Below are positions 3,064 to 19,791 of a stretch of 22,521 bases of DNA, one piece after another. The position numbers and the translations under genes are program-made. Under the pieces are notes generated by a model, which saw only the letters and a program-made list of their open reading frames with translations, ran no database searches and was not told the DNA's origin. Origin of the DNA: Candidatus Hodarchaeota archaeon (GTDB lineage Archaea > Asgardarchaeota > Heimdallarchaeia > Hodarchaeales > Hodarchaeaceae); assembly GCA_016840035.1 (NCBI GenBank), contig JAEOTC010000213.1, positions 1 through 22,521 on the forward strand, in the 5' to 3' direction. Within the stretch, counting starts at the first letter, position 1. Each line of letters starts with the position of its first letter.

Positions 3064-3537
3064 ATGAGGAAAGGTAAAAAACCAAAGAAATCAAAACCAA
3101 AGAAAAAGAAAAGACAAAAAAGTTTAATGGTCACAAAAGAAGAATTTTTAAGACTTAAACCTGTAATGAGCCCATTTGTTGAACAAAAATCAAGGACTGA
3201 CGATTCATTAAACCTAAAATTAGATATTAGTGGATATAAAAAGCGAAGCATCGTAAGACGGTTTCTACCAACTCCAAATTTTAAGAGAGTACAATTAGAT
3301 AAACTGGGCATGGATGTTTTTCTTTTATGTAATGGAAAAAACAAAGTAAAAGACATCATGAACGATTTCCAAAACAGATACAAATTAACTCCTACTGAAA
3401 CGGATGTAGCGGTTCAGAAATTCCTTATAAGTCTGACTGATCGTCATTTGATAGGATTTATCATTCCCAAAGAAATAGCAGAAAAAAAACAAGTTTTCTC
3501 TGATACCATCGAAAGGGTAATTCTTGATCCTTCATGA
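3064..3537 (+). CDS. Stand-alone PqqD-family / RiPP recognition element (RRE)-fold protein with Lys-rich N-terminus
   Basis: KRVQLDKLGMDVFLLCNGKNKVKDIMNDFQNRYKL...DVAVQKFLISLTDRHLI fits the PqqD pattern LD..G..vw.lcDG.rtv.eI...l...y......dv..fl..L....li. Confidence 0.8.
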   Translation: MRKGKKPKKSKPKKKKRQKSLMVTKEEFLRLKPVMSPFVEQKSRTDDSLNLKLDISGYKKRSIVRRFLPTPNFKRVQLDKLGMDVFLLCNGKNKVKDIMNDFQNRYKLTPTETDVAVQKFLISLTDRHLIGFIIPKEIAEKKQVFSDTIERVILDPS

Positions 3538-3554
3538 TGGAATTCAGATTTCGA

Positions 3555-4487
3555 TTAATTTGCGCCTATGGTGAGTTTGGTTATTTCTTCAATCGTTTTT
3601 CGATTAATATCAACTGATTTAGAGTTTAATTTAAAAATAATACAATAAATATCGTTTTTTTCAGCTTGGGTCCAGAGATATGTCTCGAAATATTGAGATT
3701 TCAATTTAATTCTAGATTTCGTTACTTCTCTACTCCTCCAGGCTGAAATTTTCTTTTTAAAGAGGAGTTTTTCGAATTTTTGTGGATTGTAACTAGAGGG
3801 AACTAAAGGAAAATGCTTTCGATAATACGATTTGAACCATTTCGGAAGTTCATCTTCTGAATGTATTTTTTGATCTGCTAATCCAACCCTATACGAATTA
3901 ATTTCCATATCATCACTTTTAAAATTTAAAAACGTTAATCCAATCAAAAATCGTGAACTAACAAGATTAAAATTACTCGTTGGCGTAAAAAACTGTAAAT
4001 TAGGAGCTGACCAATAATTATAGGCTTTTTGGGGATGACATTGGATATGGGAAAGGATTTCTAGAAATAGCGATTTTTCTAATTGCTTGTTTTTTATTAG
4101 ATACTGGTTTGTGCAGATAAGCAAACGATTAGTTTTCTCACAAATCCAGACAGTAACATACCCTTGTACTTTTTCTTTTTCTAATTCCCAGTATAAGTAA
4201 CGTGCTTTATGTCCATTAACTGTACGTGTGGCCTCTTTTCTAATTTTAATTTTTCTCTTTTCCTTTTTCAACGATTTATAGTAATCTTTGATAACATTTT
4301 CTAGTTTGGGAGGTTTTTTCTTAATTTGGACAAAGGATATTTCTAATTTCTTCCCTGATGGATCACGAAATCCAAAATAGCCTTTTTCTTCCTTAGTGGA
4401 TTTTTTCGTATCTTTTTCGTATATCATAGTCCAATTCTTGGGAACACTCATAAGAATTTGTTCCCAACCGACTGTCTGAAATTGCAC
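3555..4487 (-). CDS. Hypothetical basic protein, probable tandem PsbP/Mog1-like alpha/beta fold
   Basis: 310-aa ORF with no signal peptide or TM. It has a 'VPKNW' start and 'TVNGHKARYLYW' (PsbP/DcrB-like strands). The two halves repeat a W...P..(W/F) and W-x(2-5)-(E)K-x-N pattern. The fold call is an inference. Confidence 0.6.
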   Translation of the reverse strand: MQFQTVGWEQILMSVPKNWTMIYEKDTKKSTKEEKGYFGFRDPSGKKLEISFVQIKKKPPKLENVIKDYYKSLKKEKRKIKIRKEATRTVNGHKARYLYWELEKEKVQGYVTVWICEKTNRLLICTNQYLIKNKQLEKSLFLEILSHIQCHPQKAYNYWSAPNLQFFTPTSNFNLVSSRFLIGLTFLNFKSDDMEINSYRVGLADQKIHSEDELPKWFKSYYRKHFPLVPSSYNPQKFEKLLFKKKISAWRSREVTKSRIKLKSQYFETYLWTQAEKNDIYCIIFKLNSKSVDINRKTIEEITKLTIGAN

Positions 4488-4563
4488 AGGGGCTCACCAA
4501 GTGTATAAAAGAGAATTTACACTAATAATTTAAGAATAGCTTTGTAGATTTTGTTATATTGTC

Positions 4564-5616
4564 ATGAGAGCTGCAGTTATTGAAACACCTTATTCTGTTT
4601 CATTTCAGGAACAAGAAGTTCCAAAGCTTACAGAACACGATATTTTGGTTAAAGTGGAATATTGTGGTATTTGTGGTACGGATGTCCATATTTACAAGGG
4701 TCATGTTCCCTTTGTAAATTATCCGATAATTCCTGGACATGAATTTTCTGGATCAATAATCAAAGTAGGGGAACAAGTCTCAAATTTAAGTGTAGGAGAA
4801 AAGGTTGCCATTAATCCGAATCTATCCTGCAAGGATTACACATCAGAAAAGTCAAAATTCTGCTATTATTGTAAGAAAAATCGTCCTCATTTCTGCAAGA
4901 AATGGGAAGCTTTAGGAGTGACACGATCAGGTGGATTTGCGGAATATGCAGTATGCCCAGGAACATCTGCGGTAAAAATCCCTTCAAAGGATATTTCACT
5001 AATGGAGGCATCGTTTATGGAACCTATTGCATGTGCTCTCCATGGAATAAATAAATTGGATATTTCCTCTTCTGATACCATATTGATTATTGGCGCGGGT
5101 CCCATGGGATTAATAATGATTTCCCTTTTACAAGAATTATATTCGCCAAAAATCGTTGTTAGTGAACCAAATAAAATTAGAAGGGATCTTGCTTCATCTT
5201 TAGGCGTTTTGCATACAATTAACCCCAAAGACAGGCCTATTGAGCAGGTTATCCCAAATCTAACATCTAATGAGGGTGTGGATATCTCGATCGAAGCTGT
5301 AGGTTCTCCTGAGACAGCATTAAGTGCATTAAATGTACTGAACAAAGGAGGCCGTGCTCTGATATTTGGCGTAGCTTCAGAGTCCACCATTCCATTATCA
5401 CTATTTGATCTCTATAGTAGAGAATGGTCAATTTTTGGATCGTTTACGAATCCACATGAAAACCAACAAGCAATGGATATACTAGCCAAAAAAGTTATAG
5501 ACCCTAATCTACTCGTATCGCATGAATTAGATTTAGCAAATCTAGAAAAAGGCTTTAACTTGATGAATAATAACGCTTCAGATGCAAAAAAAGTCCTTGT
5601 GAAGCTAGCGGAATAG
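4564..5616 (+). CDS. Zn-dependent medium-chain dehydrogenase (threonine/sorbitol/polyol dehydrogenase-like)
   Basis: CGICGTDVH, PGHEFSG, structural-Zn cysteines, EPIACALHG, NAD-binding IIGAGPMG and GSFTNP. Confidence 0.93.
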   Translation: MRAAVIETPYSVSFQEQEVPKLTEHDILVKVEYCGICGTDVHIYKGHVPFVNYPIIPGHEFSGSIIKVGEQVSNLSVGEKVAINPNLSCKDYTSEKSKFCYYCKKNRPHFCKKWEALGVTRSGGFAEYAVCPGTSAVKIPSKDISLMEASFMEPIACALHGINKLDISSSDTILIIGAGPMGLIMISLLQELYSPKIVVSEPNKIRRDLASSLGVLHTINPKDRPIEQVIPNLTSNEGVDISIEAVGSPETALSALNVLNKGGRALIFGVASESTIPLSLFDLYSREWSIFGSFTNPHENQQAMDILAKKVIDPNLLVSHELDLANLEKGFNLMNNNASDAKKVLVKLAE

Positions 5617-5687
5617 ATTAATAAAACCAAGATCTAACCAAGTCTAATTCAGATTCATAAACTAAAATCTTAATTGAGAATAAATAA

Positions 5688-6035
5688 GTGACATCTATTA
5701 TGACTGAGAATGATGAAACCAGTCAAATCCAGTGCCCATGTGGCCAAAAAATCCAAAAGCATACGGATTACCAATTATTGTACTTAAAAAAGGACATGGG
5801 TGAAATTGACATTCTTTGCCCAAATGAATACTGTTATCTTCGCGAATTGGGATTTCTGAGATTTTCGATTAAGAATAAAAAAATTATTTTCGAAATAGGG
5901 AGATTCTATGCACCTTACGTAACATGGAATGCCACAATTATGTCCGAAGAAAAAACCGTACGCAAGCTAAAACAACATCTTGTCGATATTACTGAAAAGA
6001 ATGTTCAATGGCAAAAAATTACTAGTAGAATCTAA
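5688..6035 (+). CDS. Small hypothetical protein with putative 4-Cys zinc site
   Basis: CPCG and CPNEYC motifs; co-oriented inside the ABC operon. The start is GTG 5688 or ATG 5700. Confidence 0.7.
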   Translation: MTSIMTENDETSQIQCPCGQKIQKHTDYQLLYLKKDMGEIDILCPNEYCYLRELGFLRFSIKNKKIIFEIGRFYAPYVTWNATIMSEEKTVRKLKQHLVDITEKNVQWQKITSRI

Positions 6036-6059
6036 TAATATGAAAAGGAGTTTACGATC

Positions 6060-6662
6060 TTGGATTTAAATCTTCCAGAACCTGATTTTAGTTTCTTCGA
6101 GATGCTCTACTTATCTTTCTCAAATATTCGAAGGAGATTTTTAAGATCACTAATCACCGCTCTAGGTATAATTCTTGGAATAGCTTTCATGGCTGCTCTT
6201 CTAACAAGCTCATTAATTTTGGGAGCAATGCAAGCAGAATCTGGTGTGGAAGCCTACCAATTCTGGCTAGTAGGAATTTCTCTTGTAGTTTGTTTTGGAG
6301 GCATTACCAACAGCATGTTAATGGCAGTTAATGAGCGTGTCAAAGAAATTGGTGTGTATAAATGCATTGGGGGGTTAGATAGTCATATAGTTCGACTTTT
6401 CATTGTCGAAGCCCTGCTTCTTGGAATTCTTGGAGGAGGAATTGGAGGTGTTCTCGGAATTATCTTTGGCTTTATTATAAATTTAAACCGATTCTCATTT
6501 GATGAAATGTCAGTAGTTCTTCAAAATAACAGTATCATACTTATAGCACTTCTATTATTATCATTGTTGATCTCAATGGTCTTAACGGCGCTTGCCACAT
6601 ACATTCCTGCTCGTAGAGCGGCAAATTTGTCACCCGCAGAGGCTCTAAGATATGAAAATTAG
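6060..6662 (+). CDS. Minimal FtsX/MacB-type ABC permease (4 TM, no extracytoplasmic domain)
   Basis: NIRRRFLRSLITALGIILG (MacB TM1 lead-in), GITNSMLMAVNERVKEIGVYKCIG, LFIVEALLLG and IPARRAANLSPAEALRYE. TTG start with AAGGAG about 9 nt upstream. Confidence 0.9.
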   Translation: MDLNLPEPDFSFFEMLYLSFSNIRRRFLRSLITALGIILGIAFMAALLTSSLILGAMQAESGVEAYQFWLVGISLVVCFGGITNSMLMAVNERVKEIGVYKCIGGLDSHIVRLFIVEALLLGILGGGIGGVLGIIFGFIINLNRFSFDEMSVVLQNNSIILIALLLLSLLISMVLTALATYIPARRAANLSPAEALRYEN

Positions 6663-6676
6663 GGAGAAATAGAGAT

Positions 6677-7399
6677 ATGAGCTTAGTAGAACATGTTGTT
6701 GAAATAGAGGATGTCCACAAGACTTTTATCATGGGGAAAATCAAAGTATATGCACTGCAAGGTGTTTCGTTCAAAATTAAGAGAGAAGAATATATTAGCA
6801 TTATGGGGCCTTCAGGTTCGGGTAAAAGCACATTATTTAATGCTATTGGCGGTTTGGATGTTATTGATTCGGGAGAAATTTATATTGATCAAGTTGATAT
6901 AGCTGAACTTGATGCCACTGAATTGGCCTGGCTGAGAAATAGAAAAATCGGTTACATATTCCAAACGTTCAATTTGTTATTAGCATTCACTGCACAAGAG
7001 AATATCGAGATACCTATGGTCTTTGCTGGAGTTTCTCGTGAAGAAAGACGGAAACGCTCTAAGGAGTTACTGAAAATTGTAGGGTTAAGTGATCGGGCTA
7101 GAAATAAACCAGGACAACTAAGTGGGGGACAACAGCAGCGCGTAGCTATTGCTAGAGCACTTGCTAATGATCCTGCAATTGTATTGGCTGATGAACCAAC
7201 TGCAAATTTAGACCTCGAGACAGGTCTCGATATTATTGAATTGCTCAGAAACTTGAACAAGGAAAAAGGTACAACGATAATTACCGCAACTCATGATTTA
7301 AAAATGATCTCCATAAGTGACAGGATAATTTGGATTAGAGATGGCCTTGTAGACAGAATTGAAGATAGAGCTGATGTTGAAATTGGTACTGTAGACTGA
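6677..7399 (+). CDS. ABC transporter ATP-binding protein, MacB/LolD family (copy 1)
   Basis: Walker A GPSGSGKS, Q-loop IGYIFQTFNL, signature LSGGQQQR, Walker B VLADEPTANLD, H-loop ATHD. Confidence 0.97.
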   Translation: MSLVEHVVEIEDVHKTFIMGKIKVYALQGVSFKIKREEYISIMGPSGSGKSTLFNAIGGLDVIDSGEIYIDQVDIAELDATELAWLRNRKIGYIFQTFNLLLAFTAQENIEIPMVFAGVSREERRKRSKELLKIVGLSDRARNKPGQLSGGQQQRVAIARALANDPAIVLADEPTANLDLETGLDIIELLRNLNKEKGTTIITATHDLKMISISDRIIWIRDGLVDRIEDRADVEIGTVD

Positions 7400-7424
7400 G
7401 AATTTAGAATAGGTAGGAAAATAA

Positions 7425-8159
7425 ATGTCAGATGAAACAACAATTAAAATGGTTGATGTTTGGAAAACCTATCAGATGGGGGAAGAAAAAGTGGATGCAC
7501 TTCATGGTATAAACCTTGAGATTACCCCGGGTGAATTTCATTGCATTATGGGGCCTTCTGGCTCAGGAAAAACAACTTTTCTAAATATGGTTGGTGCCTT
7601 GGATGTTCCTACTAAGGGAGAAGTATATTTTGAGGGTGTACCTCTGTCCAGTTTGAACAAAAAGCAGCTAGCTTCATTAAGAGCGTACAAGGTAGGTTTT
7701 ATTTTCCAAACTTTTAATCTCGTCCCAGTAATCAGTGCTCTTGAGAATGTTACACTACCACTGATATTTCAAAAATTTTCTCGTAAAGAGAGACGAAAGA
7801 GAGCTGAGACAATTTTAGAGCGAGTAGGATTAGAGGATCGTATGCATCATACCCCTGATGAGTTATCAGGTGGACAACAACAACGAGTGGCGATAGCACG
7901 AGCATTAGCGGGAAAACCAAGTCTTATTCTAGCTGATGAGCCAACAGGAAATTTAGATTTAAAAACAGGTTTTCAAATAGTGGAATTATTAAGAGAACTT
8001 TGTCATGAAACTGGAGTTACAGTAATCAACAGTACTCACGATTTAAAACTTATAGATCTAGCTGATAAGATCTCTTGGTTGCGAGATGGAGAAATTACAC
8101 GAACCCAAAAACGGTTAGAAGTATCCATCTCTGCTAGTAATGTGACCATTCCCGTCTAG
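7425..8159 (+). CDS. ABC transporter ATP-binding protein, MacB/LolD family (copy 2)
   Basis: Walker [42 protein letters not shown]. Confidence 0.97.
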
Positions 8160-8235
8160 AATTATAAGAAAATAATTTAAAAATTAATCAATAACAAACA
8201 CAGAAAGTAAATAATCAATTTTAGAGGAAAATCAC

Positions 8236-8421
8236 ATGGAAATAACAGACACAATTGTGTTAATTATGGTGATTCTTGCAGTTTTAATGGCCATATTTAA
8301 TGGATGGATGATAGATATGATTGGTGAACTCCCCCTAATAATTTTAGAGGTGGGGATGTTCATAGGAGTCATTTTCATTGCAGTTTTTGGTCAATCGATT
8401 TCAGGCTCCAAGAACAAATAA
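8236..8421 (+). CDS. Small 2-TM membrane protein (61 aa)
   Basis: Two hydrophobic stretches and a basic C-terminal tail. GAGG lies upstream of the ATG, and the ORF fills the gap between the ATPase and the convergent gene. Confidence 0.7.
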   Translation: MEITDTIVLIMVILAVLMAIFNGWMIDMIGELPLIILEVGMFIGVIFIAVFGQSISGSKNK

Positions 8422-8435
8422 AATTTAAAATCACC

Positions 8436-10877
8436 TTACTCTCTGGCTCTTTCTTTGTATATTATCTCGAAACTATATACTGATAGATTTTCTAGTTCAA
8501 TATTGATATGATCTTTTCCAAGAGAGAGCATTTTAGGTATAGTTACCTCGTGAGTAGCCTTTAAAGATCTGATCTTGTAAAGAAATGGTCTTCTGATTTC
8601 TGGATGTATAACTATTTGAGTTTTTATAGAAGTTTTTGTTGGATTAAAGATTAGAAAATTAAAATTATCATTAGTAGGTTCCACAACCGAGGTAAAATCG
8701 AAGAAGTCAAGATTAATGATGAGAATTTCTCTATTCGTTACTTGTGCAACACCTTCAAAGAGCAAGCAGAGCCATATTACCTCTCCTGCTCCATAACATT
8801 CTCGACCTAAGATCCCAGTTCTAGACCCCTTTTTAGAAGGTTCCTGACTGGAAGAAAAATGTGGTGGTGTTTCTAACATTTCTAAATCCTCAAAGGGAAT
8901 AAATGGACACTCTGTTTCTCTTCTCGGAGGATAAATGATATCAGCAGGTAGAATATTAGAAAAGTAATAGAAAGAATTAATGCGGATCAAATTAAAGAAT
9001 TTTAGGAGACCCATTGATATTAAGTCATATTCACCTGATTTAATGGCATATTTTAGAAATACTGTCCATGGATATACTGATTCCAGATTTTCTTTCATTG
9101 CTGGATATCGTATCCCGATGCAGGCCATAGGAAAGCCTATAATACACCTTTTACCTTTCCATTGTAGTGTGTTATCTTCATACCAATAAAACATTCTTAA
9201 TTCATCATAAATGACAAGCTTAGCATCATGAAGGTATTTCACATCCCCAGTTATTTTGTAAAGTTCTGTAAGTCCACTTACGCCATATGCAAGTTCCAAC
9301 GGTTCCCAAAATAATTCATCAGGAGAGTTTTTCATCAAATAGACGCTTGATTTTTTTGCTTCTTCTAAAAATTCCTGATTATTAGTGAAATAATAAGCTT
9401 GTATCATAATGTAGAGATAAAGGGCTATACAAGCATAATTTTTCGCAATTTTCTTCCACTTCAGATCCACCTCATCTCGATTTAAGACTTGAAATTGCCA
9501 TCTTTCATTATCCTCATCTTCTATACTCATAAACGGTTTGAAAGTAAAAGGGTCATAAAAGGCTGTAATCGCATATTTGTGGTGATAAACGAATTGTTGC
9601 GTAAAACCCGCCATTGAAATAAATACTATAAGAAGCTCTTTTACTAGTTCTTCCCGACCCTCTTCCTGAAGAAGTCTAATTAACCATCCAAACCTCGCAA
9701 TTGGCTCAAAAAAGTACCAAGAATCACCTATTGACATTTCAGATGGTTTACTTAATACAGGCTGACCATTATCATCTAGATGAACATTATTATATAGATA
9801 GTTTGTCTCATTATCAATAAATGATTTAATCGAGGTGCAAGTCTTCAAAACATGCGATTTTTGGATCTGATTTGGGAATAGTTTTAGATATTGGATCCAA
9901 GGAGGGAGAATATCTAACAATGTCATTGTTTCAAAGGCTTTTTTTCTTCCAAAAGCCTTCCTTCGCTGATATTCTGAATTTTCCATGACGTATGCGTGGT
10001 ATAAAGGTGATTTCGGATTTTCCCAGCACAGATTTTCTTTCATCAAGTCATTTATGCATCCTTTACTATACTTTCTCCAATTTAAATCATTCTCAGGAAA
10101 ATCAACTTTAGCTGGAAGGAGATCAAAGCATTCTGCAATTAAAGACTCAACAGCTTCCCACTTACTAGGTTTTTTCTCAAGTAATATATGTCTAATATAA
10201 AACTCAAAATTTATTTCAGTGTTAGGAGGAAAAATCAATGGTTTTTCTAATGGTACACGTTGTAGAAGTCCAAAAGTTTGATTTCTCTTATAACCACACA
10301 TATAATTTGAGAAACGTTCAATTAATTCAGAGGACATCCAATTCATTGTTGAAAAATTTATAAACAAAATTGTTGCTACTTGGGTTTCTGGATTCCATAA
10401 AAAGCTTGCAGGCATATCATTGGATTTCCATTCATCCGTCGGAGGAGTATGGAGAGTGGGTTGATTTATAGAAACTGGATCAACGATATGTGAGTGAATT
10501 GGAAGAATATCGAAAACAATCTCAGGAATAGCTTTGGTAAATTGAGTTTCATCAAAAAATCTCATTTTAAGGAGGAATTTAAACCAGATCTTTGATTTAT
10601 CTTGGAAATAAGGACTGGATTCTAAATTTATATCGATTTTACTTGATATCTGTTGATTAAGGACGATCTTATTGTTAAATTTCTCTTTAATTTTATAATT
10701 AACACTTTTTGCATATATTTTCTTCTCTCCATCCAAGGTTATCAGCGGGAACGAGAGAACATTAACCAGCTGACATTCATGTTTCATTCCTGATAATATC
10801 TTACACTTTGTTCCAATATTCTCTAAGTTCAAAAACTGATTTCCGAATATAAGCAAACTTTGTGTTTTTTTATCCAT
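8436..10877 (-). CDS. Large hypothetical protein with an N-terminal beta-rich region and a C-terminal (alpha/alpha)6 six-hairpin glycosidase-like toroid
   Basis: Helical hairpin repeats typical of toroids: IQAYYFTNNQEFLEEAKK and LTELYKITGDVKYLHDAK. Acidic/aromatic motifs DSWY, PFEDL and RECYGAGE. No signal peptide. The likely start is ATG 10877 (MDKK); the ORF track extends to TTG 10895. Confidence 0.65.
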   Translation of the reverse strand: MDKKTQSLLIFGNQFLNLENIGTKCKILSGMKHECQLVNVLSFPLITLDGEKKIYAKSVNYKIKEKFNNKIVLNQQISSKIDINLESSPYFQDKSKIWFKFLLKMRFFDETQFTKAIPEIVFDILPIHSHIVDPVSINQPTLHTPPTDEWKSNDMPASFLWNPETQVATILFINFSTMNWMSSELIERFSNYMCGYKRNQTFGLLQRVPLEKPLIFPPNTEINFEFYIRHILLEKKPSKWEAVESLIAECFDLLPAKVDFPENDLNWRKYSKGCINDLMKENLCWENPKSPLYHAYVMENSEYQRRKAFGRKKAFETMTLLDILPPWIQYLKLFPNQIQKSHVLKTCTSIKSFIDNETNYLYNNVHLDDNGQPVLSKPSEMSIGDSWYFFEPIARFGWLIRLLQEEGREELVKELLIVFISMAGFTQQFVYHHKYAITAFYDPFTFKPFMSIEDEDNERWQFQVLNRDEVDLKWKKIAKNYACIALYLYIMIQAYYFTNNQEFLEEAKKSSVYLMKNSPDELFWEPLELAYGVSGLTELYKITGDVKYLHDAKLVIYDELRMFYWYEDNTLQWKGKRCIIGFPMACIGIRYPAMKENLESVYPWTVFLKYAIKSGEYDLISMGLLKFFNLIRINSFYYFSNILPADIIYPPRRETECPFIPFEDLEMLETPPHFSSSQEPSKKGSRTGILGRECYGAGEVIWLCLLFEGVAQVTNREILIINLDFFDFTSVVEPTNDNFNFLIFNPTKTSIKTQIVIHPEIRRPFLYKIRSLKATHEVTIPKMLSLGKDHINIELENLSVYSFEIIYKERARE

Positions 10878-11100
10878 ATTAAGACCACACGACAAGAATG
10901 GATGATTAGTAGAAATTTCTATATGTTTTCAGAGAAAGAAATTGCTTTTATTTCTTAAAAATTCCTCTTCTATTCTATTTCCTGTCATTTCAAACCTCTA
11001 ATTTCATTCTATGCTTCTTTCACATATTTAATCGATTTTTCTCGATAATATCAACACTCGAAAACCCAAGATAGCGTGAATCATCACTAATTTTTGAGTG

Positions 11101-11116: not shown

Positions 11117-11236
11117 TACACACATCGAAGGTACGGGTATCAATTCGAGAGGAAAAATTATTTTAATAGATGAATGGCGATAGCGAAGACTCGTAGAATA
11201 ATATATTCATCTTATTTTTTTGGAAGTGCAATACTC

Positions 11237-13435
11237 ATGAGTGATGATAGTCTCTGGTCAGACGAACCAGTTGTTGAGAAAAGCAAGGAAGATTTATTAG
11301 AAGAAGTAATTCCAGAAGTTCAATCTGGACTAACCCGTAGATCTTTTTTCATTGGATTTATTATCCTTCTTCTTTGGGGTCTTCTCACAATTTTTGCTGG
11401 AAATTTTGGTGAGGCACCTCAGATCCTTATCGAGGAAATGTCAATTTTGTTCCCATTCTTCTTACTCATATTTGGATTACAAGCCCTAGAGAAAGTCCGA
11501 ATACGCAATAAACAGCTTTCTCCTCAAGAATTAACTTTTATTTGGGCTATGTTGATTGTTGGGATACCAATTGCCAATTCTGGATTTATTGCAGGAAGAT
11601 TATTACTAAATGCCATGTTTACTCAACAAAGTGAACCGCTTTCTCCTCCATCCTCTTGGGGTGATCGGATCTGGTTTTGGGCACCTAGTGGAGATGAAGT
11701 CTATAGGGCATATGAAGGAGGTGCTTTTCCAAATATTCCAGAATGGATTATTCCTATTGCATTCTGGGGCCTAACTAGCATTGCATGGGCGTTTATGTGT
11801 TTATTCCTTATTCAGATTTTCAGAAAACCTTGGGTTGATGTCGAAAGATTAGCATTTCCATTAGCTCAGCCTGTTCAAGAGCTTTTAGAAGCCCCCCTTG
11901 CACCTTATGATAAACGTAGGAGAAGATACTTCTGGCTTGGAATCGGCGCGCTTCTCGGAATCGGTTGGTCATCATTCGAATTCTTACGAGTTGTATTTCA
12001 ATTCGATCTGTTTGAAGGAGTAGAATTCCCCTTTGATATTGTTCCAGGACGAGCATGGAGTACTAGGATCGATTTTGCTGAATTTGGAGTTCCTCCATTT
12101 CAATTGGGTTCTCTCTTCAAAAATGCTTATCTTGAAGCGAGACCTGAACCTGTTATGATAGCAGCATTCCTACTTGTATCTTTAAACGTACTACTATCTG
12201 GATTAATCTTCTATGTACTCTTTTGGGTAGCAATTCCTGTACTGGAAACAGAATTAGGTATTATTGACCCACCCACAGTGGTTGGCTCTCAACCGTACAT
12301 TGGATTAGGGTTTGCCCAAGAAGGAGGAATATCATTATTTGCCTTTGGAGAATTTGGAATGCTCTTTGGAGTCGCTATTTGGGCCGTTATTTTACAGAGG
12401 CGGTATTTAAAGAGGACAATTCAGGCAATATTTAATCCAGATATTATTGACGAAACAGGTGAACCCATTAGTTATCGTGCAGCTTGGATAGGATTCATAG
12501 TTTGCGCTATTATCTTCTTTTTCAGCTTATTCATGTCTGGCTCTCCTTTATTCGGCGCTCTCTATACAGTAATATTTTTAGTGATAGGATATATTGCTGG
12601 AGCACGATTAAGAGCAGAAACAGCAGGAATGGGAATTGGTCATCCTGGATATATTCATCTTCATGGAATTCACAGTGTTAGAGAGGTACTTGGTGGGCCT
12701 GATAACGCTCAGAATGCTGGATTTTATGTAACATCAATGTGGATGCAATTTTTTCAACGTGATGCAGCGCCTGCATCTCCTGCAATTTCATCTTTAGAGG
12801 CTTACAACATTGGCCGGGTTACAAACACACGCACACGAGATTTATTCCTAGGACAAAGCGTTGCTATCGTGTCCATAATCGTATTGTGTTTAATTGTTTG
12901 GCCGATATTTGCTTATTCCTATGGACTTGCTAACGAATGGAGTGGTGAGGCAGGACACAATCTTGATTATTCCGAAAGTAGTTTGGAACTAGCCACAGGT
13001 GGACTTTGGGATCATAAAAGTTATGGTCCAGAAATCTGGGGGCAAGCGATCCTTGGAGCAGTATTTGCAATAGGCCTTAATATCCTTAGATTAAGTCGAC
13101 CGTGGTTACCCTTCAATCCTGTTGCAGCACCCTTATTACTGAGTTTAAGAGGACCATATTGGTGGCTACCAATGCTTATTGCATATGTAATCAAATTTCT
13201 TGTCGTGAGAATAGGTGGTACGCGAGTTTATTCGTCTTCGTTACTCCCTGCGGCGGTAGGATATTTACTAGGAACTGCAGGCATATGGGGATTCACACTA
13301 GTAGCATTAATGATACCAGCGGTGTTCCCATTCATATTCTTTACCTCTATTGTGAGTTCAGGATATGACCTCCTTATCCTTGGAATCTGGCTAGTTTCTA
13401 TCTTTGGGATTGTTGTGATGATGATTAGGTCGTGA
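11237..13435 (+). CDS. OPT-superfamily-like polytopic membrane protein (DUF6785/DUF6784-like)
   Basis: Many TM helices. Motifs SGLTRR, LSPQEL, W.IP..FW, IFRKPWVDVERLAFPLAQ, RLRAETAG, PWLPFNP and KFLVVRIGGTRVY...P.AVG match my recollection of DUF6785/6784. The likely start is ATG 11237 (MSDDS); the ORF track starts at 11174. Confidence 0.75.
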   Translation: MSDDSLWSDEPVVEKSKEDLLEEVIPEVQSGLTRRSFFIGFIILLLWGLLTIFAGNFGEAPQILIEEMSILFPFFLLIFGLQALEKVRIRNKQLSPQELTFIWAMLIVGIPIANSGFIAGRLLLNAMFTQQSEPLSPPSSWGDRIWFWAPSGDEVYRAYEGGAFPNIPEWIIPIAFWGLTSIAWAFMCLFLIQIFRKPWVDVERLAFPLAQPVQELLEAPLAPYDKRRRRYFWLGIGALLGIGWSSFEFLRVVFQFDLFEGVEFPFDIVPGRAWSTRIDFAEFGVPPFQLGSLFKNAYLEARPEPVMIAAFLLVSLNVLLSGLIFYVLFWVAIPVLETELGIIDPPTVVGSQPYIGLGFAQEGGISLFAFGEFGMLFGVAIWAVILQRRYLKRTIQAIFNPDIIDETGEPISYRAAWIGFIVCAIIFFFSLFMSGSPLFGALYTVIFLVIGYIAGARLRAETAGMGIGHPGYIHLHGIHSVREVLGGPDNAQNAGFYVTSMWMQFFQRDAAPASPAISSLEAYNIGRVTNTRTRDLFLGQSVAIVSIIVLCLIVWPIFAYSYGLANEWSGEAGHNLDYSESSLELATGGLWDHKSYGPEIWGQAILGAVFAIGLNILRLSRPWLPFNPVAAPLLLSLRGPYWWLPMLIAYVIKFLVVRIGGTRVYSSSLLPAAVGYLLGTAGIWGFTLVALMIPAVFPFIFFTSIVSSGYDLLILGIWLVSIFGIVVMMIRS

Positions 13436-16400
13436 AGGTGAAAGTCAATGAGATATCTCAATCCCAAATTTACTTTTTTTTTTTAGTTCTAGTAGCTTTT
13501 TCAGCCTCTGCTAGCCTGCTCTATGGAATACAAGAATTAGAAGTAGCTGAAAAAAACGAGAATCCCAATTCAGTAACAGAATACGTCCCGACTTCCAAAA
13601 TTGAATCCATACAAGACTTTTTTAGCCTCAGTAATCAAATTAATAACACGAATTTCCCAAGAATTATCGACCATATATCAAATTTATCTAGTTATGGAAG
13701 TAGAGTAACTGGATATCCTGGTTATGAGATGGCTGCTTCATATATTCACAATTTTTTTGCAGGGGCTGGATTGGAAGGTGTTGATTACATAACATATCCT
13801 CTTATTGTCCCAATCGACAAAAATACGAAAGTTTCAATTAACGGGAATAATTATTCTGCATTTACTCTAGAACCAAACTCTGTCCATACTTCTCAAATTT
13901 CTCGAGGAGGTATTTCTGGGCCACTTATCTATGGGAAAACAGGAGAATTTACCGATTTAGATGGAAAAATTGTTAAAGATTCAATTGTAGCCCTAGAATT
14001 CAACTCTCGGGATAATTGGATTAATATTGCTGCTCTAGGAGCAAAAGGGGTAATATTTCTTGAAACCCTTGAATCTACTCGTTATGAGGCTGAATTAAAA
14101 AATATTGATGTTCCTTTAAACTTCCCTCGAATCTATATTGAGAATTCAACGACTTCAAACACCTTAAGAACACTTAGTACATTCAATAATCAAACAATCT
14201 CGGTCTATTCCAACATGGAATGGACCTCTATCGAAGCGAAGAACGTAGTCGGATATTTGCCTGGTCTAACTGAGGATACCATTGTTATTTCGTCCTATTT
14301 TGATTCATCGTCAGTGATTCCTGGTATTGCGCCAGGAGCCGATCAAGCATGTGGAATTGCTACCCTTCTGGAATTGATACAAATTCTCAAAGATAATAAT
14401 ATTTCCCCTCAACATCGAATCATGTTTCTTGCACTTTCTGGTCATCATCAGTCTGCTACTGGAGCACGTGAATTTGTTTCACAAAATTATGATATACTAA
14501 ATCGTCCAGAAGGTATTAAGCTATTTATCTCCCTAGATCTATCAAGTACAAACAATAAAATCGGAATTACTCCCTATGGGTATTTATATCGATTTAAACT
14601 TCAGTTTACCAGTGGAAATAATCTTTATGGCAGATTAAAAGACGTGGGAGAAAAATTCTTAGTGAGTTATGCCTCTGATATTAAGGCTGAAACAGGCTAT
14701 GATTTTGATGTTGCCTCCTATATCGCTCTACAAACATTTGAAAATATTGCTCCTATCACCTTTTTAGGTGATCAAGAACCCTTTGTTGCGAGTAATGTAC
14801 TGGGTTTATCATTTTTTACAGCCGAAACAAACAGACTTTTGTTTCACACTCCGATGGACACATTAGACAAAATTAAACCGGATTTACTAAAATCACAAGT
14901 TGTTTATTCAATCTGTGCAATAAGTGAACTTATTTCTGAGGAAAGTCTGGATAATTATCTGGATTTACAACCTTCCTCCTTCAGTATTCGGCACAAAAAG
15001 CATGTAGGATTTGGTAATATAGAGGGATATTGTAAAATATATAATGAATCAACAGGATGGTACACAAACGTACCTAATGCCTTGATTAGAATTACTTCTC
15101 TTGATACCCGAACAGGAGCAGCAGGATTTTATTCCTATATTACTCAGGCTGATGAATCCGGTTATTATAAGGTAAGGGGAGTATCTTCTTCTCAACCTGA
15201 CAATGTTTTGAAGTTTAGAGCGGAAGCATACCAGTTTGATGAAGAAGGAAACATCATCAAAGGAATAAATTTAGGTCCACGAGGACAATCCTTTGACCCC
15301 AGTAAGAAGTTAACTACGAAAACAATTACTATCAATCCAACAGTATTCGAATGTGGATCGATTCAAATATTCGGAGTGAATCATCCTTACACTCAAGAAC
15401 CTGTTGCTGGAACAATAAATTATCAGATAATTCATCCTGATACGCGTGCCTCATTCTTTTCATTTGGATTCATTGGAGCTGATTCAGTTAATGTTGTATT
15501 TATCCAGCCAGATTCTCCATCTGTTCTCGTAGGTGAGTTACCTGATGGAGTACTAGCTGTTTATGTCACTAATTCCGATACTGATGTGTTACGTGGGAAA
15601 GGAGTCTCCGTAAATACAGGGGAAACAGAAAATTTAGGTTATATTGCATTTATTACGGCACGAGATTTGCAGGCTATGACTCAAACTTACGTAGATTTGT
15701 ATACTTCATTCAATATTTACAATGCCCTGGTAGATGATACACTCCATCGATCCTTGAACTCATCTGCTGCTGCAAACTCCTTTCTCTTGTCTTTGAATTA
15801 CTCAAAGGCAATTGTGGCTATTACACAGGCTCAAACTTGGTCATATGATGCTTTCAAAGGAGCAAGGCAAGTCATTGAAGATGGGACCTCAACTACCATT
15901 TTTTTCGCAATTCTTCTGCTTCCTTTTTCCTTTGCAGTAACTTCCCTCTTGTTCAATTTTGACTCAGGAGTAAAGAAGATAATTACTACTGGTTTGATCT
16001 ACGGATTTACATTACTTATTTTCTATTTTATTCATCCAGGGCTTCATCTTTCATCAAATATTGCTATGGTCATTTTAGGTGTTATTGCAATCATTTTTGT
16101 TTTTCCTGCACTTTATATGATTTATTCGGAAGGTTATGATTTCTTGAAAAATTTAAGGGTAAGGTTAGTTGGTTCTCATTTTGCTGATACATCAAGAACT
16201 TCCACTGTTCTGATTGCCATGTCTACAGGTATCTCAAGAATGAAGAAACGTAAAGGAAGAACAATTATTGCCCTTTCGGGTATAATTCTCATCACCTTCT
16301 CGCTAACACTATTCACCTCAGCGAGTACACAAGTAAGTGTTTTTACTAGAGGAGTCGAAACGACTACATCGTATGAGGGTGTCCAGATACGAACAAAAGA

Positions 16401-17898
16401 TTGGGTTTCACCTTTATCGGAACAGCTTCTAGACACATTAGAAATTGAATATGGAAATAACGTCCAATTCTCTTCAAGATGGTGGTTATATCCTCCTTCA
16501 GATTGGGACAATGGTTATGTGAACGTTACTTCTTTATCAGCTGCCAATAGCTGGGAAGGCTGGGCAATTTTAGGTTTAGATCCTGAAGAACAGAATTTCT
16601 TCCCTCTTGCCGAAGCAATGAATTATGGATCGTGGTTTAACAAAAGTAATTCATTTGAATGTATTCTTACTGATTTTAGCGCCTCTCAATTGCAAGTTAA
16701 CGTTAATGACAGTGTATTATGGGCTGGTACTGAGTTTAAAATAGTTGGGATACTTGATAGCTCCATCTTTGATGACTTAAAAGACTACGATAATGAAGCA
16801 ATCTCCCCAAAAAATAATCATGCTTCTTCTGCAAACGTTCACATTCGGGCCAATCAAACATTTATTATTCCATCAGAAACCGCAAAGAAATTGGGAGCAT
16901 CATTATTTGCTATTTCTATATTAGCAGAAAAATCTTTAGCCACAGATATCGCTGAACTAGTTTCATCCACCTTCGGACGATATCTTGAGATTCGAGTTGG
17001 ATCGGAAAACCTCGTTACCATACACAAACGAGTAATTCAAAGCTTAGGACAAGGAATCGCAGAACTAGCAATTCCACTTACAATAGCAATCCTGTTAATG
17101 GTGAATACCTCAATAAGCACAGTATATGAATCAAAAAAGGAGATTGCAATTTTCACATCACTTGGACTAGCTCCTTTTCACATTGCAGGACTCTTTCTCG
17201 CAGAATTCTTGGTTTATGCAGTAATTGGATCAGTGATAGGATATCTTGCAGGAATCACTTCAGCAGTAACTTTATCAGTAATCGGAATGTTTCCTGAATC
17301 TTTAGCAATAAACTATAGCTCGGGATCAGTAATTAATGCTCTTGGTTTTGGTATCGCAGGAATACTTCTAAGCACAATTTACCCATTACGAATTTCTGCA
17401 AAAATCTCTGTCCCGTCTGTCAAAAGATCTTGGGAGCTTGCCACGAGACCAGGAGAGGATGGAAAGCGATGGAGCATTCCATTACCCTTTGTTGCAGCAA
17501 CTAAAGAAGAAGCGAAGGGAATTTTGGAATTTTTACGCGAGTTTTTTGTAATCTATGAATCAGAATCAGTGGGAGGCGCCTTTTTCGCAGAAAGCATTAG
17601 AACACGCGAAGTCACACGAAATGAACGACGCGAAATCCATCTCTTAGCTGTTGTATCATTAGCTCCTTTTGATATGGGGCTCAAACAGAGGACTGATTTG
17701 TTTTCCTACTTTGATGAAGAAAAAAGCAGGTGGATTTTCGAAATAGATTTATTAAAGACGGATGGTATTCTTTCAGCTTGGGAAACTTCTGTTAGACGCT
17801 TTGTAGATAGTATAAGAAAACAACTCTTAATATGGAGGAGTCTTCCTCAAAGTGAAAAGTCTACCAAGGCACAACAATTCAAAGAAAAGGTATCTTGA
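13432..17898 (+). CDS. 1488-aa fusion: N-terminal anchor + PA domain/M28-peptidase-fold domain + carboxypeptidase-regulatory-like beta domain + 3 TM + MacB/FtsX permease + cytoplasmic C-terminal domain
   Basis: GSRVTGYPG, PA-like GPLIYGKTG...GAKGVIF, NVVGYLPG..DTIVISSYFDS, PGADQACG, FHTPMDT, VPNALI...ADESGYY, RMKKRKGRTIIAL (MacB TM1), and NTSISTVYESKKEIAIFTSLGLAP..IAGLFLAE (FtsX). The GTG start overlaps the upstream stop (GTGA). Confidence 0.88.
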   Translation: MKVKVNEISQSQIYFFFLVLVAFSASASLLYGIQELEVAEKNENPNSVTEYVPTSKIESIQDFFSLSNQINNTNFPRIIDHISNLSSYGSRVTGYPGYEMAASYIHNFFAGAGLEGVDYITYPLIVPIDKNTKVSINGNNYSAFTLEPNSVHTSQISRGGISGPLIYGKTGEFTDLDGKIVKDSIVALEFNSRDNWINIAALGAKGVIFLETLESTRYEAELKNIDVPLNFPRIYIENSTTSNTLRTLSTFNNQTISVYSNMEWTSIEAKNVVGYLPGLTEDTIVISSYFDSSSVIPGIAPGADQACGIATLLELIQILKDNNISPQHRIMFLALSGHHQSATGAREFVSQNYDILNRPEGIKLFISLDLSSTNNKIGITPYGYLYRFKLQFTSGNNLYGRLKDVGEKFLVSYASDIKAETGYDFDVASYIALQTFENIAPITFLGDQEPFVASNVLGLSFFTAETNRLLFHTPMDTLDKIKPDLLKSQVVYSICAISELISEESLDNYLDLQPSSFSIRHKKHVGFGNIEGYCKIYNESTGWYTNVPNALIRITSLDTRTGAAGFYSYITQADESGYYKVRGVSSSQPDNVLKFRAEAYQFDEEGNIIKGINLGPRGQSFDPSKKLTTKTITINPTVFECGSIQIFGVNHPYTQEPVAGTINYQIIHPDTRASFFSFGFIGADSVNVVFIQPDSPSVLVGELPDGVLAVYVTNSDTDVLRGKGVSVNTGETENLGYIAFITARDLQAMTQTYVDLYTSFNIYNALVDDTLHRSLNSSAAANSFLLSLNYSKAIVAITQAQTWSYDAFKGARQVIEDGTSTTIFFAILLLPFSFAVTSLLFNFDSGVKKIITTGLIYGFTLLIFYFIHPGLHLSSNIAMVILGVIAIIFVFPALYMIYSEGYDFLKNLRVRLVGSHFADTSRTSTVLIAMSTGISRMKKRKGRTIIALSGIILITFSLTLFTSASTQVSVFTRGVETTTSYEGVQIRTKDWVSPLSEQLLDTLEIEYGNNVQFSSRWWLYPPSDWDNGYVNVTSLSAANSWEGWAILGLDPEEQNFFPLAEAMNYGSWFNKSNSFECILTDFSASQLQVNVNDSVLWAGTEFKIVGILDSSIFDDLKDYDNEAISPKNNHASSANVHIRANQTFIIPSETAKKLGASLFAISILAEKSLATDIAELVSSTFGRYLEIRVGSENLVTIHKRVIQSLGQGIAELAIPLTIAILLMVNTSISTVYESKKEIAIFTSLGLAPFHIAGLFLAEFLVYAVIGSVIGYLAGITSAVTLSVIGMFPESLAINYSSGSVINALGFGIAGILLSTIYPLRISAKISVPSVKRSWELATRPGEDGKRWSIPLPFVAATKEEAKGILEFLREFFVIYESESVGGAFFAESIRTREVTRNERREIHLLAVVSLAPFDMGLKQRTDLFSYFDEEKSRWIFEIDLLKTDGILSAWETSVRRFVDSIRKQLLIWRSLPQSEKSTKAQQFKEKVS

Positions 17899-17907
17899 GG
17901 GATTAAA

Positions 17908-19791
17908 ATGTCAGAGAATAATATTCTAGAAAGTAATACCGAGATACAATACAAGAGTGGTTTAACTTGGCGCGTTGGATTAGCAATTGTGTACTCTGCC
18001 CTTATTATCCAACCAGCGGCCATTTATCTTTATTTCGTGACTAATCAGTGGTTCATTGGAGCGGTTCTTAATACGACGATAGTTCTATTTGCTGTCTTGG
18101 CTAAGATGGCTGATAATCCATTAACCAAACAAGAAGTATTTCTGTTGATTAATGTAACTAGTACAGCATTAGGAATGGAAATGATTGTTGCAGTCGTCTT
18201 TAATTATTACGTTAAAAGTCATCCCATTACCAATTCTACTCTTATAAACGGTGTTCCTCTTAGTACCCTTATTCCCGATTGGTTTGCACCGGATTATTTT
18301 GGTCCAGTTACTACCTTATTTAATCCTGTTTTCATTCTTCCTCTGGGTTTATTAATCTTAAATGCCCTTTTAGGAAAAGCTACAGATATTTCACTAGGGA
18401 TTGTATTTAACTATTTATATACCAAGGTAGAAGTGTTACCATTTCCCACTGCAGAGGTTGAAGCTGAACGTGCAAAGAGTTTAACTTGGGAAGACAAGAG
18501 AAAATTGCAAATCTTTTCAGTTAGTGCCATCATTTCAAGTCTTCTTGGAATTATTCTCTATGCCTTCCCCTTAGTCTTGGGAATTACTATTATTCCGCTC
18601 CCATGGTTTGACTTTAATCCAGCAATAGAAGGTATATTACCTGGAGCTTCATTGGGAATAGCCACTGACATAATTGCCTTTTCCACTGGGTTTATTCTTC
18701 CCATGAATGTTGTGGTGTGCATCCTTGTCGCTTCTATCTTCATTAACATTATTATGAACCCAATTCTTGTTAACATGGGATATCTTCCAAGATGGGAAAA
18801 GGGTATGACTCTTTTAGATACCTTTAATACCTCCCAACTTGATTTTTGGCTGGGATGGACCGTAGGATTCCTTATTAGTGCCTCTCTTATTCCAGTTGCT
18901 CGTAATCCTAAAATATTTGTCCGTACAATCAAAGATCTTAGAAAACTTAGTCAGGGAAAAGGAGATGAGGTTGAAGGAGGGACACCCCGTCTAAGCATTC
19001 TTTTAGGTTTCTTCCTCTTGGGTACTGTAGGCTCGGTTATTGTTGCATCATTAATTATTCCAGATATTGGTTTTCAAATGCTCGTTATTATGCTTGTACT
19101 TGCTGTTGGTTGGAGTTTCATATCCTCTTTAGCAATGGCATATGCATTTGGAATTACTGCTAATCTTCCGCTCATTCCTTATGTTAAAGAATCCGCTTTC
19201 GTTGCTGCCGGGGCACCTTTAGGAAATGAGGTATGGTTCGTTCCATTAGTAATTTCTCAAGGAGGAGCTGGATGGGTTGCAACTTTCAAGACCGCAGATC
19301 TCACTTACACTAGAAAATCTAGCTTAATCAAAGCTCATCTAATTGCGTCATTTGTCGCATGGGGTGCCGGTATCTTCTGGGTTTCAGCGCTATTATCTTT
19401 AGCTCAAGTACCAAGCGTCATCTTTCCAGTTCCATTTTGGCCCCTCGAAGCAGGTAAAATTGTTACCTTTGTCTCCAATCCAACTGTAGTAATCAATCCA
19501 ATAATAATGGCAATAACCCTAATAGTCTCTCTCCTACTTTATGGCATTCAATGGACAACCAGTCTACCTATATCTGTAATTTCGCTAGCAGTTGGAACAA
19601 CAACAGCTGTTCCCTATGCTTTTACTACTTTCTTAGGTGCTCTGTTCGCTAGAGTTTTAAAAAGAAGAATGGTTAATTGGGATTCTGATAGAGCGATTAT
19701 TATTGCTGGTCTTGGAGCTGGTCTGGGGATAATCATTTCTCTCGCAACATTTATTTCACTCATATCAAATACAATCTCTCTTCCATTCTAA
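17908..19791 (+). CDS. OPT (oligopeptide transporter) superfamily-like membrane protein
   Basis: Highly hydrophobic 627 aa with SGLTWR, LTKQE, IPDWFAP, VEVLPFPTAEV, and PWFDF...LPGA.LGI motifs. Starts 9 nt after the upstream stop. Confidence 0.8.
   Translation: MSENNILESNTEIQYKSGLTWRVGLAIVYSALIIQPAAIYLYFVTNQWFIGAVLNTTIVLFAVLAKMADNPLTKQEVFLLINVTSTALGMEMIVAVVFNYYVKSHPITNSTLINGVPLSTLIPDWFAPDYFGPVTTLFNPVFILPLGLLILNALLGKATDISLGIVFNYLYTKVEVLPFPTAEVEAERAKSLTWEDKRKLQIFSVSAIISSLLGIILYAFPLVLGITIIPLPWFDFNPAIEGILPGASLGIATDIIAFSTGFILPMNVVVCILVASIFINIIMNPILVNMGYLPRWEKGMTLLDTFNTSQLDFWLGWTVGFLISASLIPVARNPKIFVRTIKDLRKLSQGKGDEVEGGTPRLSILLGFFLLGTVGSVIVASLIIPDIGFQMLVIMLVLAVGWSFISSLAMAYAFGITANLPLIPYVKESAFVAAGAPLGNEVWFVPLVISQGGAGWVATFKTADLTYTRKSSLIKAHLIASFVAWGAGIFWVSALLSLAQVPSVIFPVPFWPLEAGKIVTFVSNPTVVINPIIMAITLIVSLLLYGIQWTTSLPISVISLAVGTTTAVPYAFTTFLGALFARVLKRRMVNWDSDRAIIIAGLGAGLGIIISLATFISLISNTISLPF

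Follow-up and report, generated by a model that had tools for sequence, protein, structure and literature searches.

Do the genes crowded into one short archaeal contig encode a single membrane machine and, if so, what would such a machine do? The question is raised by contig JAEOTC010000213.1 of a Candidatus Hodarchaeota archaeon (assembly GCA_016840035.1), whose 22,521 nucleotides (nt), referred to here as the window, carry between positions 3,064 and 19,791 genes for two MacB-type ATP-binding cassette (ABC) ATPases, two very different FtsX permeases and two OPT-like proteins. An original prediction, made from the sequence alone, had taken these genes for a hybrid system of ATP-assisted uptake or processing. 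We found that the window very probably encodes, in full, a single membrane system of several subunits that functions as a unit, because four independent lines of evidence point to it: synteny within the genus, diverged paralogous loci within Hodarchaeales, loci collected with the OPT-like gene g15, and loci collected with the short FtsX gene g08. As a whole, the set is best explained as a type VII ABC engine that, with a giant receptor and an OPT-fold permease pair, would drive ATP-assisted uptake, an explanation that we regard as evenly poised between right and wrong. The genes, with families assigned by Pfam and NCBIfam scans of the translated open reading frames (ORFs) of the window, are as follows.

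3064 to 3537, plus strand: g04, PqqD/RRE-like cytoplasmic protein of 157 amino acids (aa) with a Lys-rich N-terminus (Pfam PqqD); RRE, recognition element of ribosomally synthesised and post-translationally modified peptides (RiPPs).
3555 to 4487, minus strand: g05, cytoplasmic accessory protein of 310 aa, in no family at threshold.
4564 to 5616, plus strand: g06, zinc-type alcohol/polyol dehydrogenase (Pfam ADH_N, ADH_zinc_N and Glu_dehyd_C).
5688 to 6035, plus strand: g07, zinc-ribbon-like cytoplasmic protein of 115 aa with four Cys in CPC and CxxxxC motifs.
6060 to 6662, plus strand: g08, short FtsX permease of 200 aa with four transmembrane (TM) segments and no ectodomain (Pfam FtsX, E 1.2e-16).
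6677 to 7399, plus strand: g09, LolD/MacB-type ABC ATPase, subtype A (ABC_tran, E 8e-35).
7425 to 8159, plus strand: g10, LolD/MacB-type ABC ATPase, subtype B (ABC_tran, E 3e-33).
8236 to 8421, plus strand: g11, microprotein of 61 aa with two hydrophobic segments.
8436 to 10895, minus strand: g12, putative cytoplasmic (alpha/alpha)6-type enzyme of 819 aa with a weak GH127 match.
11174 to 13435, plus strand: g13, predicted OPT-fold permease, paralogue A, of 753 aa (Pfam DUF6785, E 1.9e-36; DUF6784, E 6.9e-10).
13432 to 17898, plus strand: g14, giant FtsX permease of 1488 aa (Pfam M28, MacB_PCD and FtsX).
17908 to 19791, plus strand: g15, predicted OPT/YSL-fold permease, paralogue B, polytopic, of 627 aa (fold match to barley YS1).
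19803 to 20483, minus strand: g16, cytoplasmic accessory protein of 226 aa, no family found.
20621 to 22519, plus strand, running off the window: g17, DUF4861-like protein, membrane-anchored or secreted, with an N-terminal hydrophobic segment.

The end of g13 (13435) and the GTG start of g14 (13432) overlap in a GTGA, and the g14 stop codon (17896-17898) is followed after a 9-nt gap by the ATG of g15 (17908). The sequence thus agrees with the original prediction in both junctions and in the positions of the ORFs, and the Pfam and NCBIfam scans agree with it in the two MacB/LolD ATPases and the FtsX permeases of 200 and 1488 aa.

We found loci of three types in Hodarchaeales. In type 1, synteny extends over the full span g04 to g17 in 11 further congeneric species, at protein identities of 38-85% and with only g06 and g11 being dispensable; DUF6785, the family of g13, was detected in 12 of 21 species of the genus, and a search of 19 genomes belonging to other families of the class gave no match. 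The type-2 loci (L028/L085 and L029; G008:C49 and G004:C104) contain in their first part the PqqD gene and an FtsX gene (FtsX-991), followed by two ABC genes, the short FtsX gene and g07 on the opposite strand, and in their second part g05, a giant FtsX gene (1652 aa), g16, a DUF6785 gene (940 aa) and a gene resembling g15; only 25-28% identity links the large proteins to their counterparts in the window. Glucodextran_C (SLH-like) surface proteins, one of which has a PMT_2-like region, are encoded on the flanks of the type-2 locus. The type-3 loci (L081-L083, in genomes G002, G019 and G004) contain g07, the short FtsX gene, two ABC genes, a PqqD-like gene, a single OPT-like gene (730 aa) and an FtsX of 579 aa that has the core domain and lacks the M28 part. 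Five TldD/PmbA-family metallopeptidase genes surround one of them (L082:1-20000), suggesting, from this embedding among peptidases, that the type-3 locus is a peptide-handling version of the system.

Outside Hodarchaeales, we scanned one genome per species for g15-like genes and used the term triad for a giant FtsX gene together with OPT-like genes of the g13 and g15 types. The scan yielded 32 loci in Hodarchaeales, Bathyarchaeia and Thermoprotei; in 31 of them a g14-like gene encoding 1450-1560 aa lay within 2.5 kb of the g15-like gene, as judged with hidden Markov models built here, and DUF6785 was present in 28, the remaining four being cut by contig ends. A search with the short FtsX retrieved 45 metagenome loci with a full-length gene, 14 of which hold giant FtsX and/or OPT-like genes and 16 of which have a PqqD-like gene immediately upstream of the short FtsX gene. 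The operon order giant FtsX, OPT, g05, PqqD, short FtsX, ABC recurs in five loci (L103, L105, L111, L119 and L127); L101 has the same order, its giant FtsX gene being lost to the end of the contig, and the orders in L106 and L130 are permuted. Two of these operons, in L105 and L119, lie on related bacterial contigs with FtsZ and DprA next door. Similar gene sets do exist in Bathyarchaeia and Thermoprotei, in agreement with the original prediction, the core operon occurs in bacteria as well, and the suggested test of synteny and co-occurrence by profile models and genome scans revealed a conserved neighbourhood across paralogues, phyla and domains, in line with the proposal of one conserved gene set that includes the PqqD-like and 310-aa proteins, both FtsX permeases, the ATPases and the OPT pair.

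The largest component, g14, matched the Pfam families Peptidase_M28 (E 1.2e-17, residues 271-487), MacB_PCD (E 6.7e-6) and FtsX (E 2.3e-10). Based on hydrophobicity and the predicted model, its chain starts with an N-terminal anchor, continues with an ectodomain of some 800 aa, in which the M28-like domain lies, and with three additional TM helices, and ends with FtsX TM1, a MacB-type core domain, TM2-4 and about 150 aa of cytoplasmic C-terminal domain. When modelled, residues 800-1488 (mean predicted local distance difference test score, pLDDT, 81.5) matched LolE, LolC, MacB, HrtB and YbbP at E 2e-10 to 1e-6 with probability 1.0, as well as YtrF and BceB, so that g14 is, by its modelled fold, a type VII (MacB/LolCE-fold) permease. 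The canonical M28 set, comprising the zinc ligands His, Asp, Glu, Asp and His and a catalytic Glu, is not kept in the family, as judged over 37 full-length homologues. Specifically, the first His is replaced by Tyr289 and the Glu-Glu pair by His338-His339 in g14 itself; of the homologues, 21 have Tyr and 12 have His at the site of the first His, 32 have His at the start of the Glu-Glu pair, followed by Asn, Tyr or His, and most have Asn, Gly or Ser where the last His would be. Elsewhere in the domain, the positions Asp291, Gly302, Gln340 and Asp476 are conserved across the 37 homologues. Since the catalytic site is lost and these positions are kept, binding rather than hydrolysis is suggested, and the M28-like domain is, judging from its residues, a pseudo-peptidase, as had been predicted, or a site refashioned for binding. 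A hallmark of the family is its C-terminal domain, which matched 989 representative clusters, 331 of them at E <= 1e-10, and in the 150 best matches it stands at the protein end, mostly in proteins of 1430-1630 aa, with none of the 150 longer than 1860 aa. A PA domain in g14 of the window (E 0.23) could not be established.

The second FtsX permease, g08, has about 10 residues between TM1 and TM2, and the MacB core domain is absent. The ATPases g09 and g10 are 51% identical to each other, gave best NCBIfam matches to LolD, MacB, DevA, FtsE and YbbA, and in the case of g09 also to DarD, and both keep the Walker A, Q-loop, LSGGQ, Walker B-Glu and H-loop elements. They represent two subtypes, each conserved across loci; all three Hodarchaeales locus types retain both, and subtype A adjoins the short FtsX gene in the Thermoproteota locus L077 and the bacterial locus L105. 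Complex prediction for g14 (residues 815-1345) with g08 gave interface scores (ipSAE) of 0.33, 0.34 and 0.34 over three runs against 0.00 for the best control, with a partner pLDDT of 70 and at least 68% contact agreement between runs, lending weak support to a pairing of the two permeases. In the calibration of this procedure, 58 of 80 solved complexes and two of 110 mismatched pairs passed the mark, and scores of 0.60 or less came from seven of the 80 solved complexes and from both passing mismatches, so that a low pass is more often wrong unless the pair is likely beforehand; the g14/g08 score may also be due in part to likeness to the solved LolCE and MacB dimers.

For the OPT-like pair, sequence and structure gave different answers. 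No Pfam match was found for g15 even at E 10, and neither g13 nor g15 belongs by sequence to the OPT family PF03169, g13 falling in DUF6785/DUF6784 instead; many homologues of g15 carry PF03169, some of them weakly, some are named OPT/YSL transporters by NCBI, and PF03169 is also carried by one DUF6785 homologue. A sequence-profile search of the PDB with the g15 and g13 families returned no match. The predicted model of g15 (pLDDT 81.7; predicted template modelling score, pTM, 0.85) strongly matched in a fold search of the PDB only 7wst and 7wsr, the structures of barley Yellow Stripe 1 (YS1), with E 2.6e-10 and template modelling scores of 0.68/0.71 at about 13% identity, all other matches having E values above 0.01. 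The fold model was built for g15, and g13 is tied to the fold through homology, the two family profiles aligning over 589 columns (hhalign 99.4%, E 2.7e-21) as full-length homologues. Because g15 is modelled with the fold of YS1 and the two families are homologous, the predicted OPT-like proteins are two anciently diverged permeases of the modelled OPT/YSL fold. The type-2 DUF6785 proteins (L028:8829-11651 and L029:8532-11507) are 940-991 aa long and have about 250-300 additional N-terminal aa.

Several smaller proteins travel with these components. The absence of TM segments and signal peptides indicates that g04, g05, g07 and g16 are cytoplasmic, and since they are also conserved with the engine, we take them to be assembly or regulatory subunits. 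The PqqD/RRE assignment proposed for g04 stands in part: the Pfam domain (PF05402) is detected, but at the borderline (23.9 bits against a cut-off of 23.4), the NCBIfam PqqD models being far below their cut-offs, and the gene is kept with the system in type-1, type-2 (L085, E 5e-35) and type-3 (E about 1e-7) loci. For g05, the proposed tandem PsbP-like nature found no confirmation, its DcrB match being at E 0.018 and 15.6 bits against a 27.2-bit cut-off; its nearest named Atlas clusters, with a PsbP/DcrB-type lead, score 0.84-0.85, and its nearest clusters overall (0.95-0.96) consist of unnamed proteins of Thermoproteota, Bathyarchaeota and Thermodesulfobacteriota. Orthologues of g05 are present in all type-1 and type-2 loci. 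A 305-aa neighbour of the type-3 PqqD-like gene was considered as a relative of g05 and showed no detectable relationship. The g07 gene lies directly upstream of the short FtsX gene in all three Hodarchaeales locus types and adjoins the ATPase gene in the metagenome loci L091, L107, L113 and L129, and g11 comes after the second ATPase gene both in orthologous loci and on the metagenome contigs L086 and L087, a conservation that makes this microprotein probably a real small subunit; the predicted 4-Cys 115-aa and two-TM 61-aa proteins are thus both real and conserved in orthologous loci. The g16 gene lies beside g15 in type-1 loci, is also found in L016, L031 and L057, and in type-2 loci has a counterpart within the operon, where it follows the giant FtsX gene and directly precedes the DUF6785 gene. 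A match of g16 to part of DNA polymerase IV (NCBIfam, 27.5 bits against a 362-bit cut-off) was disregarded, as were its Atlas scores of 0.82 or less.

What the system handles may be read from the genes beside it. We examined 154 neighbours of 27 triads outside Hodarchaeales, mostly in Thermoproteota, and found them to be dominated by catabolic genes. URO-D-type methyltransferases were the commonest (12 of the 154), followed by B12-binding proteins, Phosphodiest and xylose-isomerase-like TIM barrels (five each), MTTB (four) and sulfatases (three). In addition, glycosidases near triads included GH2, GH4, GH66, GHL6, GH42 and a rhamnosidase in family scans, and GH106, GH15 and GH130 in contig listings, and one triad locus had a TrmB regulator. 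The URO-D, B12-binding and MTTB neighbours, together with a URO-D-family gene near stand-alone DUF6785 proteins (adjoining them in L013 and L031, several kb off in L015), hint at methylated substrates. Substrate-specific uptake is favoured because many paralogous copies occur in a genome, each beside different cytoplasmic degradative enzymes, and uptake is further favoured because the characterised OPT/YSL proteins (TC 2.A.67) are, to our knowledge, importers.

How the Thermoproteota triads might be energised was indicated by gene counts. Five Thermoproteota genomes whose triads lack a nearby engine hold many giant FtsX genes (about 1400-1570 aa), and four of the five hold a single g08 orthologue (40-45% identity), with an ATPase gene adjacent in two. 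In an even sample of 201 Thermoproteota genomes, with short FtsX orthologues accepted at E <= 1e-25, the short FtsX was found in 54 genomes, always in one copy, and g15-like genes in 47, in 1 to 6 or more copies; 45 genomes had both, two had g15-like genes only, nine had the short FtsX only and 145 had neither. The odds ratio is 362, with a Fisher's p of 3e-33 that overstates the co-occurrence because related genomes are not independent. In most cases the genes lie on separate contigs, so that the co-occurrence is not an effect of synteny. A single short FtsX, often beside an ATPase, thus appears, from gene counts and co-occurrence, to serve many giant-FtsX/OPT modules in Thermoproteota, and such an unlinked short FtsX/ATPase is the probable motor of the triads that have no ATPase of their own elsewhere.

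We infer that the products form a physical complex, that g08 pairs with g14, that transport is directed inward and what the substrate may be, and the mechanism proposed here is built on these premises. The ATPases g09 and g10 would lie under an FtsX-fold permease pair, g08/g14, to form the engine, and the outer domain of g14, about 800 aa in size, would be a binding or receptor head. This ectodomain would capture an extracellular oligomer, here probably a glycan fragment freed by g17 or other proteins of the cell surface. The FtsX helices would pass on the binding and hydrolysis of ATP by mechanotransmission, and the substrate would be pushed into, or would gate, the OPT-fold pair g13/g15 as the path across the membrane, after which neighbouring enzymes such as g12 and g06 would degrade it in the cytoplasm. 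In Thermoproteota, one short FtsX, often with its ATPase, would act as an energising module shared by many triads. ATP-assisted uptake through the OPT-fold pair is, taken by itself, slightly short of an even prospect. A wider claim, that the system represents a new class of primary-active importers in which a shared type VII engine energises or gates OPT-fold permeases and the pseudo-peptidase ectodomain is the receptor, is offered tentatively, as it seems to us rather less probable than its opposite.

A number of observations weigh against ATP-assisted uptake. The characterised type VII ABC systems act outward or within the envelope, in efflux, lipoprotein extraction or hydrolase control, and not in import (PMC12646458). 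The bacterial operons in L105 and L119 are directly followed by a SPOR-domain gene (shown for L105) and ftsZ (L105:11830-14790 and L119:10856-13646), which are not catabolic genes. Within 10 kb of most Thermoproteota triads there is neither a MacB-type ATPase gene nor a short FtsX gene. Two of the 47 genomes bearing g15-like genes (G091 and G243) have no short FtsX at the threshold used, and the nine genomes with the short FtsX alone have no detected triad. A search for OPT-like domains fused into longer proteins found none, which is weak evidence by the search's own rating. Finally, DUF6785/DUF6784 proteins occur alone, with no FtsX, in bacterial-type contigs (L013:7809-10955, L015:799-9627 and L031:502-3931), and the occurrence of these distant DUF6785 proteins without FtsX indicates that the OPT fold is not intrinsically dependent on an engine. 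As to G091 and G243, either a more diverged short FtsX partner is present or their triads work without one.

Some of these observations would be accommodated if the products formed an envelope machine rather than an importer, one that, like LolCDE, YbbAP-TesA and FtsEX-EnvC, extracts, presents or remodels a surface component such as a lipid-linked glycan, S-layer or wall material, with the OPT-fold proteins serving as flippases, exporters or recyclers. The outward or envelope role of every characterised type VII system (PMC12646458), the match of the g14 fold to such systems, the SPOR-domain gene and ftsZ beside the L105 and L119 operons, and the SLH-like and PMT_2-like proteins flanking the type-2 locus would all be in keeping with such a machine. 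Thermoproteota, however, have up to six or more triads per genome, each beside different catabolic enzymes (GH4, GH2, URO-D/B12/MTTB or sulfatases), and because the triads are multi-copy and differ in their enzymes, substrate-specific uptake fits better than a housekeeping role in the envelope. The distribution of the system is also patchy even within the genus (the 12 of 21 species noted above), and the characterised OPT/YSL members are, so far as we know, importers. We therefore consider an envelope machine unlikely.

It is more improbable still that there is no joint machine, and that OPT-fold secondary importers and a MacB-type exporter are merely co-regulated in catabolic loci. The stand-alone DUF6785 proteins of other lineages and the many Thermoproteota triads without an ATPase in cis would be expected from such co-regulation. 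Against it stand the nearly constant proximity of the giant FtsX and g15-like genes in two archaeal phyla (31 of 32 loci, within 2.5 kb), whatever the cargo, the often overlapping or near-touching ends of the giant FtsX and OPT coding sequences, the survival of the partnership in bacterial operons and in the three paralogue sets into which the Hodarchaeales loci have diverged, and the tracking of the triad by an unlinked short FtsX. A RiPP-like peptide export or immunity system, with a PqqD-type leader binder and a MacB-type exporter as in lasso-peptide or bacteriocin clusters, would account for the PqqD-like g04, for the good scores of the ATPases on darobactin and bacteriocin exporter ATPase models and for the TldD/PmbA peptidases that fill the type-3 locus and are known from microcin B17 processing, but it is very improbable, as neither the window nor the conserved set showed a gene for a RiPP maturase or precursor peptide (radical-SAM, YcaO, lasso cyclase, LanB/M or precursor-like), PqqD-like genes also occur in loci that have glycan-related neighbours and in bacterial operons, and the 61-aa ORF is a two-TM protein and not precursor-like.

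The uptake system proposed here shares features with several known systems. Like the type VII ABC systems (MacB, LolCDE, FtsEX-EnvC, YbbAP-TesA, HrtBA and BceAB), it has the FtsX four-helix fold, a MacB-type core domain and LolD/MacB/FtsE-type ATPases; it has two unlike permeases, as do systems with LolC and LolE, and, as described for FtsEX-EnvC and YbbAP-TesA, its engine would serve a partner protein and have no pore of its own. It differs from them in that one permease has no ectodomain, g14 combines some 800 aa of pseudo-peptidase with three additional TM helices and a cytoplasmic C-terminal domain that is conserved, two distinct ATPases are present in Hodarchaeales, the constant partners are OPT-fold permeases, and the system occurs in archaea in a context pointing to uptake. 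With the OPT/YSL family (TC 2.A.67, PF03169; HvYS1, 7wst/7wsr) it shares the overall fold predicted for g15, to which g13 is homologous, whereas g13 and g15 come as a diverged paralogue pair with an FtsX partner; we know of no OPT that uses an ABC engine. Group II energy-coupling factor (ECF) transporters would be similar in using a single-copy energising module for many substrate-specific modules encoded elsewhere, although their folds are unrelated and the sharing proposed here is deduced from gene counts and co-occurrence. The M28-fold pseudo-peptidase receptors nicastrin and transferrin receptor likewise have an M28-like domain without the canonical co-catalytic zinc site and catalytic residues, a general likeness, the domain being fused here to an ABC permease. 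SusC/SusD polysaccharide-utilisation loci also combine a constant uptake module, present in many paralogous copies per genome, with different degradative enzymes at each copy, but their proteins are unrelated, no outer membrane is involved here, and the cargo genes include methyltransferases and peptidases and are not confined to glycans. The parts belong to known superfamilies (type VII ABC, OPT/YSL fold, M28 fold and PqqD), and the OPT-fold partner is unprecedented among type VII ABC systems; in agreement with the original prediction, no description of this gene combination or of its function was found in the literature searched.

The system is widespread, occurring in Asgard archaea, bacteria and about a quarter of the sampled Thermoproteota, and its hallmark domain by itself marks 989 representative clusters. 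In sediment and hot-spring archaea it lies beside the glycosidase, corrinoid methyltransferase and peptidase genes from which their carbon metabolism is deduced, and it may be a major unrecognised route of entry for organic matter. If the uptake mechanism is correct, this would be the first case of uptake by a type VII ABC system, extending the class beyond work on the envelope, and the first ATP-dependent OPT-fold transporter, in which an ATP motor drives a secondary-transporter fold, hence a new transporter class and an archaeal counterpart of the modular uptake of polysaccharide-utilisation loci. New in this analysis are the three diverged paralogous architectures and the co-occurrence of a single-copy short FtsX with triads, and the particular value of the window is that motor, receptor, permeases and accessory proteins are all encoded in cis in an Asgard archaeon, providing a defined gene list.

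The remaining genes of the conserved stretch seem to be linked to the cargo. The g12 protein matched GH127 weakly (E 0.0015), and its family profile weakly matched LanC-like proteins, AprG and GH127 in the PDB; it is, from these similarities, probably a glycan-related enzyme, specific to the cargo and not part of the core. The DUF4861 family was matched by four of nine members of the g17 family (best E 6.6e-6), and g17 is probably also cargo-specific. Both genes travel with the triad, being constant in type-1 loci and also present in L016 and L033. The dehydrogenase g06 is missing from part of the orthologous loci and probably lies outside the core, as a catabolic enzyme particular to its locus.

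A scan of the window for sigma-70 promoters and terminators gave numbers close to the expectation from shuffled sequence, the consensus being bacterial and the host archaeal. The source genome is 4.3 Mb in size and 87% complete, the window being its 22.5-kb contig C195; close homologues of the window proteins are named Hodarchaeales, Hodarchaeota or Heimdallarchaeota, and DNA of the window is present in five marine-sediment metagenome DNA runs. Positions 1-2862 are unrelated to the system and contain a 258-aa ORF that runs off the window edge, with weak Dus/SPOUT-like matches only, a gene for CofD (2-phospho-L-lactate transferase, of F420 biosynthesis) and one for an LplA/B-type ligase (lipoate-protein ligase).

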